Of a stretch of 53,879 nt of DNA, positions 4,526 through 52,627 are shown one piece after another. The DNA comes from an uncultured Bdellovibrionales bacterium (lineage in GTDB: Bacteria; Patescibacteriota; Minisyncoccia; Moranbacterales; DUUL01), in assembly GCA_964643985.1 (NCBI GenBank), contig CAZXUS010000003.1:1-53879 (forward strand), written 5' to 3'. A program made the translations under genes and the position numbers. The notes below the pieces were generated by a model, which saw only the letters and a list, made by a program, of their open reading frames with translations, was not told where the DNA came from and did not search any database. Each line of letters begins with the position of its first letter. Positions within the stretch are counted from its first letter, which is position 1.

Positions 4526-4529
4526 TATA

Positions 4530-4720
4530 GGGACTGTTTCCAAATACAGTTTTATAGCGAAAAATTAGAATTTTGAGGTAAATTTTTCAAACAATTTTTG
4601 AAGCTTTAGCGTTAGTTAAGGCAATAAAATTTTTGTAAAATTTAACCAAAATTATAATTTTGTCCGCCTCGGCAAGCCTCAGCGAGACGGGCAGTAAAAA
4701 GGGTGTTTGGAAACAATCCC
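4530..4720. mobile_element. MITE-like element, family D (TIR GGGACTGTTTCCAAA), copy 1, carrying a nested 29-bp palindromic insert at 4663-4691
   Basis: Left end is GGGACTGTTTCCAAATAC. The right end TTTGGAAACAATCCC is its inverted repeat. The internal long AT-rich hairpin is shared with copies at 34091, 34476 and 52467. Confidence 0.7.
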
Positions 4721-5860: not shown

Positions 5861-6779
5861 AGAAATTCTTAAACAAGCCAACCGACAACTGCAAAAATAT
5901 TCTCCGACTGCCCCCCTTGATGCGGAAATTTTATTAAGTTCAGTTTTGAAAAAAAATCGAGAATTTTTGTTTTCCAATCCTGACTATCAACCTTCTTCTC
6001 AAAAAATAAAAACTTTCAAAGCTCTAATTCAAAAAAGAATTGAGCAAGAACCGATTGCCTATCTCATTAAAGAAAAAGATTTTTACGGCCGAACTTTCGA
6101 TGTTGATTGCTCGACCCTAATTCCTCGCCCCGAAACCGAACTTTTAGTTGAAAAAACCCTAGAATATTGTCATAAAGAATTTTATCCTTCCCAAAATATC
6201 GCTCTCATTGATATTGGAACTGGATCAGGTTGTATTTTAGTCTCACTTTTGAAAGAACTTCAAAAGAAGCGTTTTAGAGAATCTAAAATCAAAGCTTTCG
6301 GAATTGATATTTCAGCAAAAGCTTTAAGAATTGCTAAGAAAAATTCAGAAAGAATAGAGCTTCTTACTAAAATTAATTTTTTGAAAGGTAGTTTATTGGA
6401 ACCAATTTTTGGGAAAAATTTCTCTGTTTCTAATTTTAGCAACTGCTTTCCAGCAAATACGCAACTAGTAATTACCGCTAACCTGCCCTATTTATCAGCT
6501 GACATTTATGAAAACTGCCCTAAGTCAGTTCTTGATTTTGAACCCAAAAAAGCGCTCATCGCCAAAAAAGACGGCCTAGAATTCTATTTAAAGCTCTTAA
6601 ATCAGATCAAACGATTAAAACTACCTGATTTAGTTCAAAATCTTTATTTAATTTTTGAAATATCGCCGGAGCAAAAAAATCTTGCCGAAGAAGATTTTAA
6701 GAAGATTTTTCCTAACTTAAAAGTTAAATTCAGCAAAGACCTTGCCCAAAAATGGCGTTTTATTGAAATTTTCTTTTAA
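5847..6779 (+). CDS. prmC: Release-factor glutamine N5-methyltransferase (HemK/PrmC)
   Basis: Overlaps the prfA stop by 14 nt. SAM-binding motif IDIGTGSGC. The catalytic tetrapeptide reads NLPY (ITANLPYL) rather than NPPY. Confidence 0.85.
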
Positions 6780-6863
6780 ATGGTGTAAAATTAAAACAAG
6801 TCAATTCTTAAGATTGCAATTTAAAAATCAAAACTTTTTTCTTCTGTTCTTCCCTTTTCAGAC

Positions 6864-7003
6864 TGTCATTCCCGCTCACATCTTGTCATTTCCGCACTCA
6901 ACTTGTCATTCCCGCTTTAAACTTGTCATTCCCGCGGAGGCGGGAATCCAGAATTTTAAGATTATGACTTCTCCCCCTAGATTCCCGCCTCCGCGGGAAT
7001 GAC
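6864..7003. repeat. Family A array: four 20-bp units (TGTCATTCCCGC+N8), a terminal palindrome GTCATTCCCGCGGAGGCGGGAATCCAG (6925-6951), and an inverted copy (6981-7003)
   Basis: Units start at 6864, 6884, 6904 and 6924. The stem-loop is ATTCCCGC-GGAG-GCGGGAAT. The reverse-orientation copy is ATTCCCGCCTCCGCGGGAATGAC. Confidence 0.85.
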
Positions 7004-7104
7004 AAAGATGTTTTTACTTTTAATTTAGGCTCTTATCTTTTAACTTTTATATTATTGAAATTTTTTTATAAATACCCTATGTTTAAATAAATACCTTAAT
7101 CCTC

Positions 7105-7554
7105 ATGACTAAATTAGCAATTAACAAGAAGGCGCACTTTGATTATGAAATTCTCGAAACCTTCGAGGCTGGTTTAGTATTAAAAGGCTACGAAGTCAAA
7201 TCTGCCAAAAACGGTCATATTTCCCTCAAAGGTGCTTTTGTCACTTTTAGAAGAAACGAACTTTATCTAACCAACGCCCATATCAATCCCTATAAACAAG
7301 CTGGGATTATTGAAGGTTATGACCCCACCAACCCCCGGAAACTGTTAGTCAAAAAAAGTGAACTAAAAAAACTAATCGGAAAAGTTCGAGTTGATGGCTT
7401 GACATTAATACCCATTTCAATGTATAATAAAAAAGGTCTAGTCAAGTTAGAATTTGCGTTAGGCAAAGGAAAAAAACGAACCGATAAACGTCGAACCATT
7501 CAAGCTCGGGAAAATAAAGTTAAAATTTCACGAGCATTCAAAGAAAGAAGATAG
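7105..7554 (+). CDS. smpB: SsrA-binding protein SmpB
   Basis: KKAHFDYEILETFEAGLVLKGYEVKS.. is a typical SmpB N-terminus. 149 aa, next to the tmRNA gene. Confidence 0.95.
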   Translation: MTKLAINKKAHFDYEILETFEAGLVLKGYEVKSAKNGHISLKGAFVTFRRNELYLTNAHINPYKQAGIIEGYDPTNPRKLLVKKSELKKLIGKVRVDGLTLIPISMYNKKGLVKLEFALGKGKKRTDKRRTIQARENKVKISRAFKERR

Positions 7555-7567
7555 AATTTTGAATTTC

Positions 7568-7617
7568 AAATTTTGAATTTTGCTGTGCCTCGCCGTAGCT
7601 TTAGCGAAGGCGGGATT
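7568..7617. repeat. Left arm of a 50-bp inverted repeat flanking ssrA (contains the family B1 core CCTCGCCGTAGCTTTAGCGAAGGCGGG)
   Basis: AAATTTTGAATTTTGCTGTGCCTCGCCGTAGCTTTAGCGAAGGCGGGATT matches the reverse complement of 8404-8453 at 49 of 50 positions. Confidence 0.9.
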
Positions 7618-7791
7618 CAATGTCGAATGAACTAATTTCTTAATTTTTAAATAAAATTTATTTAGAGAATTAAGTCATTAAAAATTGATTAAAAATTCAA
7701 AATTGGAAATTTAAAATTAAGAAAAGCTAATCTTTTTTTAATTTTATTTCCTAAAGATTAACTTTTAATAAAACATTAAACGTGTACCCTC

Positions 7792-8265
7792 GGGGGTGTC
7801 AGGCTTCGACAGGTTAAGTATTTTGAAATTTGCAAGCTGAGTTATATGCCTCATTAAAAGCATATAGGGATTGGCTTTAAGTGTTATTTTGTTTTCAAAA
7901 TTGAAAAGAACATTTAAAGCCAATCCCGAAACCTTATAAGTGCAAACTTATATAACAAAGCAAAAAGTGCGTTAGCATCAGCTTTCACACCCAATTTTGC
8001 TGCTGCCATAGCTTAATATAACCTATGGTCCATCGATTGATCGACTCTCAATAGATCTTATTCGGTGTCAACATTGAGATATAATTAATTTGTTTTCTTT
8101 TGGCAAATTAGTTGAATTCTACAAAAGAGGATTTATTAATTATTTTGTTTGTTTAAAGATTTTTAAATTCTATGGAATTTTATTATTCCTAAAATAAACA
8201 CTCTAAGCTTGTAGACGATTTTAAAATTTTGACACTGGACATGGGTTCAATTCCCATCACCTCCA
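7792..8265 (+). ncRNA. ssrA: tmRNA (SsrA), about 474 nt
   Basis: The 5' end GGGGGUGUCAGGCUUCGACAGG pairs with the 3' end CACCUCC-A. It has a G3:U wobble (alanine identity) and a T-arm GGGUUCAAUUCCC. CCA is not fully encoded. The tag reading frame GCA(7942)..TAA(8016) encodes ANLYNKAKSALASAFTPNFAAAIA. Confidence 0.9.
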
Positions 8266-8403
8266 CAAATTATTTTACTCTCTTAGTAGAGAGTAAAAAA
8301 TTAATTTTTAATTTTTTAATTTTTAATGACTTAATTTTTAATTACGCAAGCTCTGCCTGCGTTCATTGAGACATTGTTTAAAAAATTAAGTAATTCAAAA
8401 TTA

Positions 8404-8453
8404 AATCCCGCCTTCGCTAAAGCTACGGCGAGGCACAACAAAATTCAAAATTT
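8404..8453. repeat. Right arm of the 50-bp inverted repeat flanking ssrA
   Basis: See 7568-7617. Further matching inverted blocks lie at 7671-7687 / 8318-8334 (TTAAGTCATTAAAAATT). Confidence 0.9.
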
Positions 8454-8547
8454 ATAATGCCCTTTGGGTGTAAAATTTCTTTCTGCCATTGCCAAAAACA
8501 TAACTTTTTGATATATTTAATAAAATTTAATAAACTAAACTAAAACC

Positions 8548-10100: not shown

Positions 10101-10165
10101 TTCAACTCTCCGCTTTGTCATCTACAATTCCCGCTTTCATCTTTGTTTTTACTGCTATCGTTTTT

Positions 10166-10190
10166 GTCATTCCCGCGGAGGCGGGAATCC
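10166..10190. repeat. Family A palindrome GTCATTCCCGCGGAGGCGGGAATCC, preceded by decayed CCCGCTTT units
   Basis: Exact match to the core at 6925-6949. Degenerate units are visible from about 10110. Confidence 0.85.
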
Positions 10191-10284
10191 AATTTATCAA
10201 ATAAAATTCAATCCCACCCAAAAAACCCAAAACAAAAAGGCACTGTTCCTCGAACACCACCTTCATAAAATATTTTTTTTAATT

Positions 10285-10768: not shown

Positions 10769-10859
10769 TCATTCCTACTCGCACTCTCAATGAAGCAAAC
10801 ATTGATAACTTTGTCATTCCCGCTCACATTCTGTCATTCCCGCGGAAGCGGGAATCCAG
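10769..10859. repeat. Family A array (GTCATTCC units) ending in the palindrome GTCATTCCCGCGGAAGCGGGAATCCAG (10833-10859)
   Basis: Same architecture as 6864-6951. The track ORF 10621..10827 overlaps it and is probably spurious. Confidence 0.8.
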
Positions 10860-16605: not shown

Positions 16606-16755
16606 GTCATTCCCGACTTGTTCAGAAATCCAAAAAAGGAAGTCTTTAGTTTAAATTTTCTGGATTCCCGCCTCCGCGGGAATGACAGAATTAGAGGCAA
16701 AAATCAAGAAATTTAGAATAACAATATTGTCATTCCCGCGGAGGCGGGAATCCAG
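16606..16755. repeat. Family A cluster: a degenerate unit (16606-16633), an inverted palindrome (16660-16686) and a direct palindrome (16729-16755)
   Basis: CTGGATTCCCGCCTCCGCGGGAATGAC and GTCATTCCCGCGGAGGCGGGAATCCAG face each other 42 bp apart, just upstream of valS. Confidence 0.85.
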
Positions 16756-16775
16756 ACTTTTATTTTACAAACTTC

Positions 16776-22390: not shown

Positions 22391-23131
22391 ATGATTCTTT
22401 TATATAATATCTACATGAACATAATCTATTCTAAAAAATCAATTCTTCAGGATATTTTAAGAATTTGCTCAGTCATTTTGCATATTGCCGTTTATGTCAG
22501 CAGTTTTGCTTTTCTAAGTTTAACTTTATTTATATTTGCGAAATTTGTTAAATTTAATATAGAGTTTTTCCATATTATTGCTTTTTTATTATTATCTTTT
22601 ATTCTTTTTACAAAAATAAAAAATGAGAGAATTAAAAAATTTGGTTATTATTTAGGAAAGATTTTGACCATTTTTGTTAGTGTTTTTATCTTGTTTCTTT
22701 TTTTGAATTCATATTTAAAAATTTTCGATAATATAGATCAATTTTTTACAGTTTTTTTAAGAACTTTTGAAATCTTTGTTAATAGATTTGCTCTCGGAAT
22801 ATTATTCGCCATTGGGTCGATTTTACTATATATTTATTTCGCCTCTCTTTTGTTAAAATTTGTTTTAAACATAACGCAAAAAGTGACAAAGTTTGTAAAA
22901 ATAATTTTTGGTTTGATAGCTACATTTATTATACTTATTCCATTTTTATATTTTTTGAACAAATTTTCCATTGTAGTTTTAAATGATTTATTTTATTCTA
23001 ATTTTAGTTGGTTTTTTGGATTTTCGTTAATTTCTCTTCATTTAAATTACTTACTTAAGGAAATCAAAATAATAATAAATTCTAATACTACCCATGCCTC
23101 AAGTGCGGCGGTCGACACACTGAGCAACTAA
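22391..23131 (+). CDS. Hypothetical polytopic membrane protein
   Basis: 246 aa, very hydrophobic, no known motif. Confidence 0.35.
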   Translation: MILLYNIYMNIIYSKKSILQDILRICSVILHIAVYVSSFAFLSLTLFIFAKFVKFNIEFFHIIAFLLLSFILFTKIKNERIKKFGYYLGKILTIFVSVFILFLFLNSYLKIFDNIDQFFTVFLRTFEIFVNRFALGILFAIGSILLYIYFASLLLKFVLNITQKVTKFVKIIFGLIATFIILIPFLYFLNKFSIVVLNDLFYSNFSWFFGFSLISLHLNYLLKEIKIIINSNTTHASSAAVDTLSN

Positions 23132-23172
23132 GATAATGTTAAAATTTTTAAAAAATTAAAGTATTAATAAAT

Positions 23173-23511
23173 ATGGTCCAAATCTTATTAATAGGAATAG
23201 GTATATTAATTATAATAAAAGGAAACTTAAAAGTTTCAGATACCAAAGAAATAGTTAGACCACAATCAATTTATTGGGGATTAATTGTAATTATATACGG
23301 CATTGCCGTTTCTTTTTTACCAGATCAACTGATCTATAGTTTAATATTTTATTCTTCTTTTATATTAATATTGACTATTTTCCTGATTAAAGGAAGAACG
23401 ATTGCATCTAGCGAGGCCATCGCAAAATCTAAAGACACAAAAAGAAACTTAATTATACTATTGGTCTTTATTGCAATAGTGGTTACTGTTTTTTATTTCT
23501 TTCTGAAATAA
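23173..23511 (+). CDS. Hypothetical small membrane protein
   Basis: 112 aa with four hydrophobic segments. Confidence 0.35.
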   Translation: MVQILLIGIGILIIIKGNLKVSDTKEIVRPQSIYWGLIVIIYGIAVSFLPDQLIYSLIFYSSFILILTIFLIKGRTIASSEAIAKSKDTKRNLIILLVFIAIVVTVFYFFLK

Positions 23512-23535
23512 AAAACCACCCCGGAGGGTGGTTTT
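23511..23535. terminator. Bidirectional intrinsic terminator (A-run, CCACCC-CGGA-GGGTGG, T-run)
   Basis: Begins within the stop codon (23509-23511) of the 23173..23511 ORF. Confidence 0.8.
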
Positions 23536-23545
23536 GGATTGATAA

Positions 23546-23695
23546 GGGGAATCGTGCGCAAGTCACTAAACTTGTGCGTCGCCTTCGGCTTGCACTCGTT
23601 AAGTGCTTCCTGCCCGGACTCGGCCCACTCTCTATAATTCCTCGCTAGCTCGGAATATGGGGCCTCCGTCTGTCCGATTCCCTCTAGTCGCTCCA
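23546..23695 (+). ncRNA. Candidate G+C-rich structured RNA of unknown class (about 150 nt) ending in a copy of the tRNA-His 3' end
   Basis: Bounded by two terminator hairpins. Closing helix is 23546-54/23675-83. Internal hairpins lie at 23556-77, 23581-89, 23592-606, 23608-18 and 23622-64. G-U pairs are only valid on the + strand. Confidence 0.45.
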
Positions 23696-23702
23696 AAACA
23701 AT

Positions 23703-23730
23703 AAAACCACCCCGAGGGGTGGTTTTGTTT
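23703..23730. terminator. Bidirectional intrinsic terminator between the candidate RNA (+) and tRNA-His (-)
   Basis: AAAACCACCCCGAGGGGTGGTTTTGTTTT. Confidence 0.8.
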
Positions 23731-23732
23731 TG

Positions 23733-23804
23733 GGCGACTAGAGGGAATCGGACCCTCATAGCTGGTACCACAAACCAGTGTTCTACCACTGAACTATAGT
23801 CGCC
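23733..23804 (-). tRNA. tRNA-His (anticodon GTG) with genome-encoded G-1
   Basis: Reverse complement is G-GCGACTA-TA-GTTC-AGTGGTA-GAAC-A-CTGGT-TTGTGGT-ACCAG-CTATG-AGGGT-CCGATTC-CCTCT?-TAGTCGC-C. The cloverleaf folds with a G-1:C73 pair, GUG in the anticodon loop and T-loop UCCGAUU. CCA is not fully encoded. Confidence 0.9.
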
Positions 23805-34064: not shown

Positions 34065-34090
34065 TTTTATATTATTTTAAGATTTATTAA

Positions 34091-34251
34091 GGGGCTATTT
34101 CCAATCACAATTTTGTTACGAAATTTTTCAATTTTGAGATAAATTATTTAAAAATTTTTGAAGCTTTAATGATAATTAAGGCAAAACAATTTTTAGATAA
34201 TTTATCTCAAAATTGAAAAATTGCAGTAAGAATGGTGACTGGAAACAGTCC
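34091..34251. mobile_element. MITE-like element, family D, copy 2
   Basis: GGGGCTATTTCCAATCAC ... GTGACTGGAAACAGTCC terminal inverted repeats. The internal hairpin is shared with the other copies. Confidence 0.7.
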
Positions 34252-34333: not shown

Positions 34334-34475
34334 ATCATTAGTACTTGTGGCGATTGGCGTATCCACCAAATACGCATCTTTTAAAAGATTGAGAGATTAT
34401 TCTCCGCTAAACCAAGCAAATTTTAAAGAGTCTTAGTTTTAAAAACTAGGGAATCTAAGTGGAACCGCGATAAAA

Positions 34476-34638
34476 GGGACTGTTTTCAAACATTGTTTTG
34501 TTGTGAAAAGCTAGAATTTTAAGATAAATTTTTCAAATAATTTTTGCAGGACTAGCAAATCGCTAATTCAAAAAAATTTTTGAAAAATTTAGCTAAAATT
34601 ATAGTTTTGCAACAAAAAGAATGTTTGGTAATAGTCCC
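34476..34638. mobile_element. MITE-like element, family D, copy 3, inside the T-box antiterminator loop
   Basis: GGGACTGTTTTCAAACATT ... AATGTTTGGTAATAGTCCC. Confidence 0.7.
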
Positions 34639-37865: not shown

Positions 37866-37937
37866 ATTCAATTTACAATAAACCAATTTACAATTTATAA
37901 TAAATTTTCAATTATTTAATTTTCAATTTCCGCAAAG

Positions 37938-37973
37938 GCTCGCCTCGCCATAGCCTTAACGAAGGCGGGCGAG
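37938..37973. repeat. Family B1 element (GCTCGCCTCGCCATAGCCTTAACGAAGGCGGGCGAG)
   Basis: Related to 7585-7617 and 8404-8437. Confidence 0.7.
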
Positions 37974-38857: not shown

Positions 38858-39032
38858 TTAAAATCCCTCCTTAATTAAGTTAATAAAAACCACCTAAAAA
38901 TATTTTCTCAATAAATCAAGTTATTGTCAATCTCTAGCAGCACAAACTCAAAACCTTTCTTCTTATCGGATTTCGATATTCGAAAGCCATTGAAAATTAA
39001 ATCATTGAAAATTGATTGTAAATTGAAAATTG

Positions 39033-42361: not shown

Positions 42362-43057
42362 CTATTTCCATTTTTTGGCTAATAGACCATTCTCGGCGGC
42401 ACTGCGCTGAGCTTCCTGTTTTGAAGCTCCCTCTCCTTCCGCCACTTTCTCATCCTTCAAAAAAACCGCTATCAAAAAATTCTTATCGTGATCTGGTCCC
42501 CATTCTTTAACCAATTCATAATGCGGAGTGACTTGAGCAATTTCTTGAGCTTTTTCTTGGAAATAGCTTTTAGCATCCAAATAAGTTTTATTTTTAAGAA
42601 TTTCTGGAAGTTTGACGATAATATATTTATTGATGAATTTATCAACTTCCTCAAAACCTTTATCTAAATAAATACTTCCAATCAAAGCTTCCATAGCATT
42701 GGCTAAAATATAATTTCGCGCTTTTCCAGTGTCTTTTCTTTCTCCCTTGGACATTAAAAGAAAATCATCTAATTTGATTTCTTTAGCAACTATGGCCAAC
42801 ATCTCACCATTTACCAAAGCCGCTCGCCAGCTAGTTAAATCTCCCTCTTGATTTTTGTGATTTTTGAAAAGATAATCCGTGACGGATAATTCTAAAACTG
42901 CGTCTCCTAAAAATTCTAAACGTTCATTGTGAGGCAACTCATATTGTCGGTTTTCATTTAAATAAGACCGATGAGTCATTGCCTCTTGCAAGTGATTAAA
43001 ATTCTTAAAAGATAAGTTTATTTTTTTCGCCAAATCTTTTAATCCTTGATTTTCCAT
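42362..43057 (-). CDS. rnc: Ribonuclease III
   Basis: Signature ERLEFLGDAVLE and a C-terminal dsRBD (..EGEGASKQEAQRSAAENGL). Confidence 0.95.
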   Translation of the reverse strand: MENQGLKDLAKKINLSFKNFNHLQEAMTHRSYLNENRQYELPHNERLEFLGDAVLELSVTDYLFKNHKNQEGDLTSWRAALVNGEMLAIVAKEIKLDDFLLMSKGERKDTGKARNYILANAMEALIGSIYLDKGFEEVDKFINKYIIVKLPEILKNKTYLDAKSYFQEKAQEIAQVTPHYELVKEWGPDHDKNFLIAVFLKDEKVAEGEGASKQEAQRSAAENGLLAKKWK

Positions 43058-52325: not shown

Positions 52326-52466
52326 AGTACGGCGAACGAAAAGTGCAGATTTCAACATAATAAACGCCTCCAAAGCTAGAGACTTAATAATTTAAGTAAA
52401 GTTTGAGGAGAATTTGAGCACCGAGTAAGACGTACTGAAAAGTACGGCGAACGAGTGGCGGAAATA
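52326..52466 (+). repeat. Family C element(s): a partial copy plus a full copy
   Basis: AGTACGGCGAACGA occurs twice (52326 and 52441). The full unit is ..GTTTGAGGAGAATTTGAGCACCGAGTAAGACGTACTGAAAAGTACGGCGAACGAGTGGCGGAAATA. Confidence 0.7.
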
Positions 52467-52627
52467 GGGACCAAGTTTGAATACAATTTCGTAATGAAAT
52501 TTTAAATTTTTGAGGTAAATTATTCAAATAATTTTTGAAGCACTGGCCATAGTCAATGTAATAAAATTTTTGTATAATTTAGCCAAAAATTTTAGATTGA
52601 ATAGAAAGAGTATTTAAATTTAGTCCC
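52467..52627. mobile_element. MITE-like element, family D, copy 4
   Basis: GGGACCAAGTTTGAATAC ... GTATTTAAATTTAGTCCC, with the shared internal hairpin (..TTTTGAGGTAAATTATTCAAATAATTTTTGAAGC..). Confidence 0.7.

Follow-up and report, generated by a model that had tools for sequence, protein, structure and literature searches.

The DNA analysed here, contig CAZXUS010000003.1 of GenBank assembly GCA_964643985.1, is a stretch of 53,879 nucleotides (nt) from an uncultured bacterium and is referred to as the window. It carries, next to the gene for its histidine tRNA (tRNA-His), a G+C-rich element (positions 23546–23695) that lies between two terminators, as an initial annotation made from the sequence alone had proposed. 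The tRNA-His(GTG) gene is located on the − strand (23733–23803, or to 23804 with its encoded G-1; ARAGORN, and 65.9 bits with Rfam). Its C73 is at 23733, its T-loop reads UCCGAUU, its CCA end is only partly encoded, and a sigma-70-like promoter (10 of 12 positions matching) is found upstream. The G+C fraction is 0.55 at 23550–23699 versus 0.17–0.30 in the flanks, in a genome of about 25 per cent G+C. The element is real, conserved and structured, falls outside Rfam, and is most aptly called a tRNA-His-linked repeat unit, of the same kind as the tRNA-linked repeats (TLRs) of Escherichia coli but a new variant.

Twenty nucleotides at the end of tRNA-His (G53 to C72; GTCCGATTCCCTCTAGTCGC, 23734–23753 on the − strand) recur as an exact inverted copy at 23672–23691 on the + strand, where they are followed by UCCA (23692–23695). 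This inverted repeat had been noticed before, and it is meaningful: the chance expectation is 0.01, and no third match with three or fewer mismatches occurs anywhere in the window. The gene end and its copy form a near-perfect palindrome of about 82 nt (23672–23753), which spans terminator hairpin T1 (23703–23726, from a terminator scan); T1 serves the tRNA-His gene as well and lies at the palindrome's centre. On the other side of the element, terminator hairpin T2 (AAAACCACCC-CGGA-GGGTGGTTTT; 23512–23535, flagged on the − strand by the scan) is a near-identical copy of T1, as seen in an alignment of 23500–23556 with 23693–23752. What is duplicated is a module of the terminator and the next ~20 nt (23506–23554 aligns with 23697–23750), so that T2 is followed by another, now decayed, copy of the tRNA end, oriented like the tRNA gene (23536–23554), at the place where the homologous locus of a relative (L024, below) has an intact 19-nt copy. 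The decayed copy, GGATTGATAAGGGGAATCG as against the intact GGGCGACTAGAGGGAATCG, is identical at 12 of 19 positions, 8–9 nt of them contiguous, and retains the match only in its inner 9 nt (23546–23554).

The order ValRS-HSP20-VanW-[gap]-tRNA-His-ferredoxin-iPGM-DnaE is kept in relatives whose iPGM proteins are 68–79 per cent identical, and we read the gap between VanW and tRNA-His in nine lineages (L-numbers denote the syntenic loci of relatives). Between the VanW side and the tRNA-His terminator lie G+C-rich units of two kinds, A and B. Five lineages carry type B (the window, L020, L004, L003, and L024/25/26), and type A is found in L021 and L023 (which differ by a single 30-nt hairpin insert), in L017 and, partially, in L028. 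The two kinds stand in tandem in L004 and L003, as a fusion with A on the far side of B, and in L024, where a decayed A lies beside B; on the − strand the order is B then A in all three. The window, L020, L021 and L017 have a single unit. Loss is seen as well: the element is absent from L005/6 and L019, and its last ~38 nt alone are left in L001/2. Wherever the element is carried (9 of 9 lineages), it begins 42 nt past tRNA-His on the − strand, beyond T1, and its orientation relative to the tRNA is constant, in 5/5 B cores and in all A cores.

The complete B unit of L024 is bounded by perfect 19-bp terminal inverted repeats (GGGCGACTAGAGGGAATCG...CGATTCCCTCTAGTCGCCC), both of which are the tRNA-His 3' end; its far-end copy matches that end at 19 of 19 positions. 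In type A, the far-end copy reaches a full pseudo T-arm, and in L021 it is 25 nt long with 3–4 changes. The far end of type A in L017 comprises a pseudo T-arm and 48 nt of flank that together are identical at 62 of 66 positions to the genuine tRNA end of L003 with its flank, which identifies it, on sequence comparison, as a displaced old tRNA 3' end. The B cores are 70–86 per cent identical to each other and have 51–57 per cent G+C, apart from that of L003, which has drifted to 44 per cent. The cores of the window and L020 are 86 per cent identical, with one compensatory change between them; the near-end copy has decayed in L020 and the far-end copy in the window. A covariance model built on type B (R1) scores 155 bits in the window, 149 in both L004 and L020, 142 in L024 and 128 in L003, and it finds one type B copy per genome, only at the tRNA-His locus (the 54 kb of the window plus the other loci; 155 kb scanned). 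Types A and B are not homologues by this measure, as R1 gives type A just 12–15 bits.

Position 55 of the tRNA T-loop is almost universally U (pseudouridine 55). The T-loop of the window's tRNA-His (23745–23751) has C at this position, as do those of L004, L020 and L003, and the usual UUCGAUU is found in L001, L021 and L024. The inverted copy carries the same T-loop base as its own tRNA-His in 6 of 9 genomes.

The B units share a fold. Closing helix P1, with its 5' strand on the + strand at 23546–23554 and its 3' strand inside the inverted tRNA-His copy (23675–23683), is 100 per cent paired in the five genomes; it is the helix GGGGAAUCG/CGAUUCCCU first proposed for the window, and it is kept in the relatives. 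In the window P1 has only 9 bp, versus 19 bp in L024, because the far-end tRNA copy has decayed; in complete units the closing helix has the sequence of the tRNA-His acceptor and T stem, 19 bp in length, around two arms. The first long arm, P3 (23560–23608), is built from AAGU/GCUU, ACU/AGU, AAC/GUU, GUGC/GCAC and GCC/GGC below a triloop at 23584–23586; compensatory changes affect 7 of its 14 pairs, and 95.7 per cent of its cells are paired. A junction read from the sequences as CCUGCCC (23609–23615; CCUCUCC in L004 and L003), to which a CU-rich run of type A (CUUCCUCUC) is similar, leads to the second long arm, P4 (23616–23671). This arm stacks GGAC/GUCU (23616–23619/23668–23671), GGCCC/GGGCC (23622–23626/23660–23664) and AUUCC/GGAAU (23637–23641/23652–23656) below a conserved 10-nt loop, UCGCYAGCUC (23642–23651).

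The helices of P4 change on both sides among relatives: GGCCC/GGGCC becomes GGCGC/GCGCC in L020 and GGCAC/GUGCC in L024, GGAC/GUCU becomes GGUC/GACU in L024, and AAUUCC/GGAAUA becomes AGUUG/CAACU in L004. These replacements are given in a manual register, and the P4 helices of L004 and L024 were scored by hand, because realignment with the covariance model left a 1-nt register shift in both. In the model-based alignment of type B, 87.7 per cent of the cells are paired and 12 pairs have both-side changes; the covariation score is 0.321, versus 0.179 in shuffles (none of 500 as high), and the signal is lost when the pairing partners are slid by 1–3 columns. Folding of the single window sequence gains modestly over shuffles (z = −2.5 on the + strand and −3.3 on the − strand), and the L024 unit adopts the same Y-shaped fold, with −68.4 kcal/mol and z = −6. 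Type A has a core of its own, with one compensatory change (GGGCGC/GCGCCC versus GGGAGC/GCUCCC). Judging from the sequences of the sub-lineage formed by the window and L020, what selection keeps there is the core and the inner 8–9 bp of the closing helix, and the acceptor-stem mimic appears to be dispensable.

Comparison with relatives and the compensatory changes therefore bear out the earlier suggestion of a conserved structured element that probably acts at the RNA level, with corrections to its fold. Of the hairpins drawn in the initial annotation, GGCCC/GGGCC, AUUCC/GGAAU and GCC/GGC are retained. The hairpins GCGCAAGU/ACUUGUGC and GCAC/GUGC (23592–23595/23603–23606) give way to the conserved alternative, the long arm at 23560–23608 (AAGU-ACU-AAC-GUGC...GCAC-GUU-AGU-GCUU), and UCC/GGA lacks covariation and is incompatible with GGAC/GUCU, a helix that the relatives do support. 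The decayed second tRNA-end copy at 23536–23554, the 19-bp terminal repeats, the two cores A and B and the likeness to TLRs had escaped that annotation.

No known RNA family accounts for the element. At the gathering score, no Rfam family fits the element in the window, and none does at permissive E-values (E ≤ 10, 1 or 5) for the window segment, L004 and L021; the output consisted of tRNA, tmRNA and spurious microRNA-hairpin matches to the palindrome only. The RtT family gave no match at the gathering score or at E ≤ 10, 1 or 5. Domain IV of the signal recognition particle RNA, the D-arm of class II tRNAs, group II intron domain V and P4 of RNase P were considered and rejected for inconsistent pairing and want of Rfam support. 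The 98-amino-acid (aa) open reading frame (ORF) on the − strand at 23493–23789 is spurious, because its start lies inside the tRNA. The Y-RNA/YrlA-like module that had been suggested finds no backing: there is no Rfam Y-RNA or YrlA match up to E ≤ 10, and the 34 ORFs of at least 140 aa in the window include neither Ro/TROVE nor RtcB. No integrase (as had been stated), transposase or recombinase is found among these ORFs either.

No mobile carrier or distant copy was detected. A blastn search with the complete L024 unit against phages and plasmids had no match, and a scan of viral contigs with a 17-mer of the tRNA end returned only phage tRNA arrays. A pattern scan of genome contigs gave eight matches, and the three that were read are all false: L012 and L009 lie in protein-coding DNA, in a conserved PDSAHGTNPAS stretch that resembles the glycine-cleavage P protein, and L014 is plain G+C-rich sequence. 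The matches in L011 and L013 are 69 nt long, the same as those in L012 and L009, and L007, L008 and L010 were checked by Rfam only. The two matches in a pattern scan of metagenome contigs are both random G+C-rich DNA.

The genes around the element are mostly of the housekeeping kind. The window encodes RF1, SmpB, tmRNA, ValRS, HSP20, VanW, ferredoxin, iPGM and DnaE, as well as ThrRS, SMC, RNase III, NrdD, PriA and enolase, and the closest named homologues of iPGM are from Patescibacteria, some of them labelled Moranbacteria. The cargo between VanW and the tRNA-His-linked unit varies by genome and is mostly unannotatable, and this region is a hot spot where genes turn over locally: the window has two membrane ORFs there (22391–23511), L020 three small ORFs (6313–7600) and L005 a hydrolase (7083–7850). 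L021 has no cargo between VanW and tRNA-His.

We tentatively favour the explanation that the element is one unit of a set of lineage-specific structured repeats that are linked to tRNA-His, resemble TLRs and yield a small RNA by read-through. A complete unit consists of a 19-nt copy of the tRNA-His end at its far end (in gene orientation), an inverted copy beside the terminator, and a G+C-rich core between them, and the two copies pair into a 19-bp helix that closes a Y-shaped core of two long arms. Along the tRNA strand, one encounters tRNA-His, terminator 1, a unit ending in the tRNA 3' end, and terminator 2, sometimes with two units. The sequences show that the element is conserved, has compensatory changes and is built of repeats, and that it has been lost or has decayed in some lineages; that it is transcribed, on which strand, how its RNA is processed and what its core does, we infer. 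The unit would have no promoter of its own (inspection of the sequence reveals no room for one at either end of the window element), and its RNA would be a passenger transcript that most likely starts at the strong promoter of tRNA-His and passes terminator 1 by read-through. As the closing helix resembles a tRNA end, RNase P and 3'-end trimming enzymes might excise and stabilize the unit, whose conserved core would then be a small stable RNA, perhaps one that binds a protein via its conserved loops. Overall, the element is probably active as a small RNA and makes use of the signals of the tRNA. The origin of the unit is duplication or integration at the tRNA 3' end, and duplication and recombination there could also explain how units were reshuffled. 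Strand indicators (wobble pairs, fold energy and terminator T-runs were tried) conflict, and the − strand would be favoured by the TLR-like layout and by the fact that tRNA-His has the sole promoter-like site in reach.

Several observations weigh against this explanation. The outer half of the acceptor mimic is broken on one side in both the window and L020, yet the core is kept, so tRNA-like processing would not be essential there. The type B sample amounts to five sequences, two of which are decaying, and homology to the E. coli TLRs is not detected with Rfam RtT (E ≤ 10). An RNA read through on the − strand is predicted to refold the tRNA 3' end with the inverted copy into a 38-bp hairpin (−90.6 kcal/mol), which would spoil that tRNA molecule. 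Finally, wobble pairs point to the opposite strand: in the well-kept B copies (window, L004 and L024), all six non-Watson-Crick pairs are G-U on the + strand and A-C on the − strand, and type A, with its structure predicted on the + strand, has 10 G-U cells versus one A-C.

These wobble pairs support a different explanation, a stand-alone small RNA on the + strand that is convergent with tRNA-His and shares its bidirectional terminator, which we consider possible although rather doubtful. The ends of such an RNA would mimic the acceptor/T helix of tRNA-His, with G-1 opposite C73 or U73 and then NCCA, and the palindrome would represent two convergent genes with the same terminal sequence and terminator, which would account for the inverted copy and the terminator being one palindrome. 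NCCA does follow the inverted copy in the window, L001, L021/23, L028, L004, L003 and L017. An extra T that breaks the palindrome yields UCCA in the window, L001, L021 and L028, and an extra C yields CCCA in L003; in L021, an extra G in the opposite palindrome arm pairs with the T as G-U. The hairpin and closing helix of type A contain internal G-U pairs on the + strand, and the + strand copy is the best kept, persisting in L001 despite loss of the core. However, no genome has a promoter-like site upstream of the element on the + strand, where a terminator abuts the 5' end, and L017 lacks a co-oriented upstream gene that could feed read-through. L024 has CCCG instead of CCA, and the "CCA" of L021 is mostly base-paired. 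The decaying L003 copy has 7 A-C versus 2 G-U on the + strand. Unpaired positions are 74 per cent purine on the − strand, and the corresponding loops on the + strand, 74 per cent pyrimidine, would be unusual for a structured RNA; the consensus fold is also weaker on the + strand (−39.9 versus −46.6). The confident + strand call of the initial annotation, whose G-U argument leaned partly on an unconserved helix, is thus not upheld: the wobble evidence is mixed, and the layout points to the other strand.

That the element is a feature or scar at the DNA level, left where site-specific integration, duplication and recombination took place repeatedly at the 3' end of tRNA-His, with att-like direct repeats and an inverted copy around a short foreign DNA and a structure that either serves as a recombination substrate in single-stranded or cruciform DNA or has no role, seems to us unlikely as a whole account. 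In its favour, a hot spot lies between VanW and tRNA-His, in which the window, L020 and L005 differ in cargo and L021 has none, and close relatives gain, lose and fuse units. A displaced tRNA 3' end still joined to its old flank, as in L017, is what integration into a tRNA gene classically leaves behind. The pairs are almost all Watson-Crick as well (125 of 131 in the intact B copies). Nevertheless, no integrase, transposase or recombinase is encoded by the ORFs surveyed in the window, the element was not found in the phage and plasmid collections, and each genome has one copy, with none dispersed. A core of 55 per cent G+C with compensatory changes would be unexpected in a 25 per cent G+C genome if it were neutral, and L003, where selection seems relaxed, drifts to 44 per cent. 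Nor is the unit an invertible switch: all five B cores have the same orientation, and the G+C-rich core lacks a conserved −10 (the TATAAT at 23633–23638 of the window is not conserved). The relic of recombination that had been proposed earlier describes part of the origin of the element. We give hardly any credence to the element being no more than a lengthened bidirectional terminator, or an insulator, that separates the convergent genes on the VanW side from a highly expressed tRNA-His and in which the inverted tRNA copy would lengthen a stem and the core would be a spacer between dual terminators. Two strong, near-identical terminators do flank the element, and the palindrome runs from the terminator stem into its arms through spacers that differ (CCAAAAC in the window, CCAGAATCC in L001 and CCCCACA in L004). 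Yet a spacer would not retain two long arms through compensatory changes, both arms of the palindrome are never in one terminated transcript, and L005 and L019, which lack the element, cope with a single terminator.

A bolder reading is a long shot: complete units may be mimics of the tRNA-His acceptor arm or, if not, the smallest known self-targeting integrative modules. Acceptor mimics of this sort, with an 8-bp stem and G-1 opposite C73, often followed by CCA, might get their mature ends from RNase P and the CCA-adding enzyme and might perhaps accept histidine. G-1 opposite C73 is the known identity set of histidyl-tRNA synthetase, and plant viruses have histidine-accepting tRNA-like ends. 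If true, such units would be a chromosomal bacterial counterpart of those viral ends and could serve as a sensor, decoy or donor. As integrative modules, units of ~150 nt may consist of a tRNA-end att site and a folded core only.

Other repeats occur in the window and in the related loci. The tmRNA gene (7792–8268) is bracketed by 81-nt inverted repeats (7563–7643 and 8378–8458; 88 per cent complementary), each with a G+C-rich 28-nt motif, GCCTCGCCGTAGCTTTAGCGAAGGCGGG (7587–7614 on the + strand and 8407–8434 on the − strand). They could be a long processing stem, an idea prompted by the RNase III gene at 42362–43057, or an inserted repeat pair. A third copy of the motif in the window (37942–37969) has the form GCCTCGCC-N12-AAGGCGGG, which is that of the optional 30-nt hairpin insert of type A (L021, 6212–6238; L024, 5279–5305). 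The insert is absent from L023, whose iPGM protein is identical, and hence looks like a small G+C-rich repeat with fast gain and loss. G+C-rich hairpin repeats of another kind, TTGTCATTCCCGCGGAGGCGGGAATCCAG (6864–7015, 10144–10192, 10811–10859 and 16659–16756), are intergenic, form tandem and inverted pairs, and resemble repetitive extragenic palindromic (REP) elements or terminators. L003 (~7108–7267) has an A+T-rich insert of ~160 nt between a terminator remnant and tRNA-His that is similar to miniature inverted-repeat transposable elements. The insert is bounded by terminal inverted repeats of 23 bp (GGATTTCTGATTAAGATTATTTT), and its right end recurs in L017 (~6236–6290), next to the displaced pseudo tRNA end of type A. 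In the window, 44-nt A+T-rich inverted repeats (37884–37927 and 38989–39032; 91 per cent complementary) surround ~1.06 kb between radical-SAM and methylase genes that contain small ORFs only (55–59 aa) and may be a small inserted element. Lastly, A+T-rich direct repeats of ~136 nt have four members that are 64–76 per cent identical (4527–4662, 34088–34223, 34473–34608 and 52464–52599).

Among known systems, the element shares with RNAs that mimic tRNA ends (the tRNA-like domain of tmRNA, viral 3' tRNA-like structures, mascRNA and YrlA) that its ends pair into an acceptor-like helix, made here of real tRNA sequence, and that NCCA is often encoded after the helix. It differs from them in having no T- or D-loop mimic, as the T-loop bases are paired, in the decay of the acceptor part in the window and L020, and in having no Rfam match to tmRNA, YrlA or mascRNA over the element and no Ro gene in the window. 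The tRNA-derived bases of the element, furthermore, are in its closing helix and not in an internal T/D-like module such as would be expected of Y RNA or YrlA. With att duplications and integrase-less islets of the CIME (cis-mobilizable element) type, it has in common an insert bounded by a direct repeat of the tRNA 3' end, the displaced old 3' end and flank in L017, and variable cargo next to it. Unlike these islets, the insert is ~150–250 nt long, comes with an extra inverted copy, shows selection on its structure, and has no integrase in the window.

The closest resemblance is to TLRs, whose record in E. coli goes back to 1978 and most of which still lack a function. Each ends at its 3' side in 18–19 bp that repeat exactly the 3' terminus of the tRNA or rRNA upstream of it, and a locus has one to five of them (PMC8144298). 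RrA, RrB and RrF (of rrnA, rrnB and rrnD) lie between dual terminators T1 and T2 and are produced by T1 read-through, and the TLR repeat has been proposed to direct processing (PMC8144298). In the E. coli tyrT locus, which we checked directly, the final 19 nt of tRNA-Tyr occur six times without change, at intervals of 178 nt, and every unit contains GGGGAAGGAT, which is complementary to 10 nt of the repeat. Like RttR/rtT of tyrT and RrA, RrB and RrF, the element adjoins a tRNA or rRNA gene downstream and on the same strand (co-transcription being a prediction here), ends with an 18–19-nt copy of the 3' end of that gene (19/19 in B of L024, decayed in the window), and occurs as one to several tandem units (here one or two). 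Dual terminators surround it as T1 and T2 surround the unit of rrnB, and the tyrT units, too, have an internal complement to 10 nt of their repeat. The differences lie in the full-length inverted copy at the other end, which gives a 19-bp closing helix, in the G+C-rich core with two covariation-supported arms, in the occurrence of two unrelated cores with the same ends, and in the host, a Patescibacterium; the strand of the element is, moreover, a presumed one. The element has no sequence similarity to TLRs and no Rfam RtT similarity, and with no RtT match it is an analogue of TLRs, not a homologue. To our knowledge, few non-coding RNAs have been described in Patescibacteria, and the element provides a compact, covariation-supported RNA candidate in this group and a test case for the uses of tRNA-end mimicry. 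The architecture of TLRs recurs here in a genome-reduced lineage that is very distant from E. coli, where it has arisen with unrelated sequences and is preserved through compensatory substitutions despite strong A+T pressure. This suggests a general route to new stable small RNAs, in which a highly expressed tRNA gene has its 3' end duplicated along with the terminator and a passenger sequence borrows the promoter and processing signals of the tRNA.

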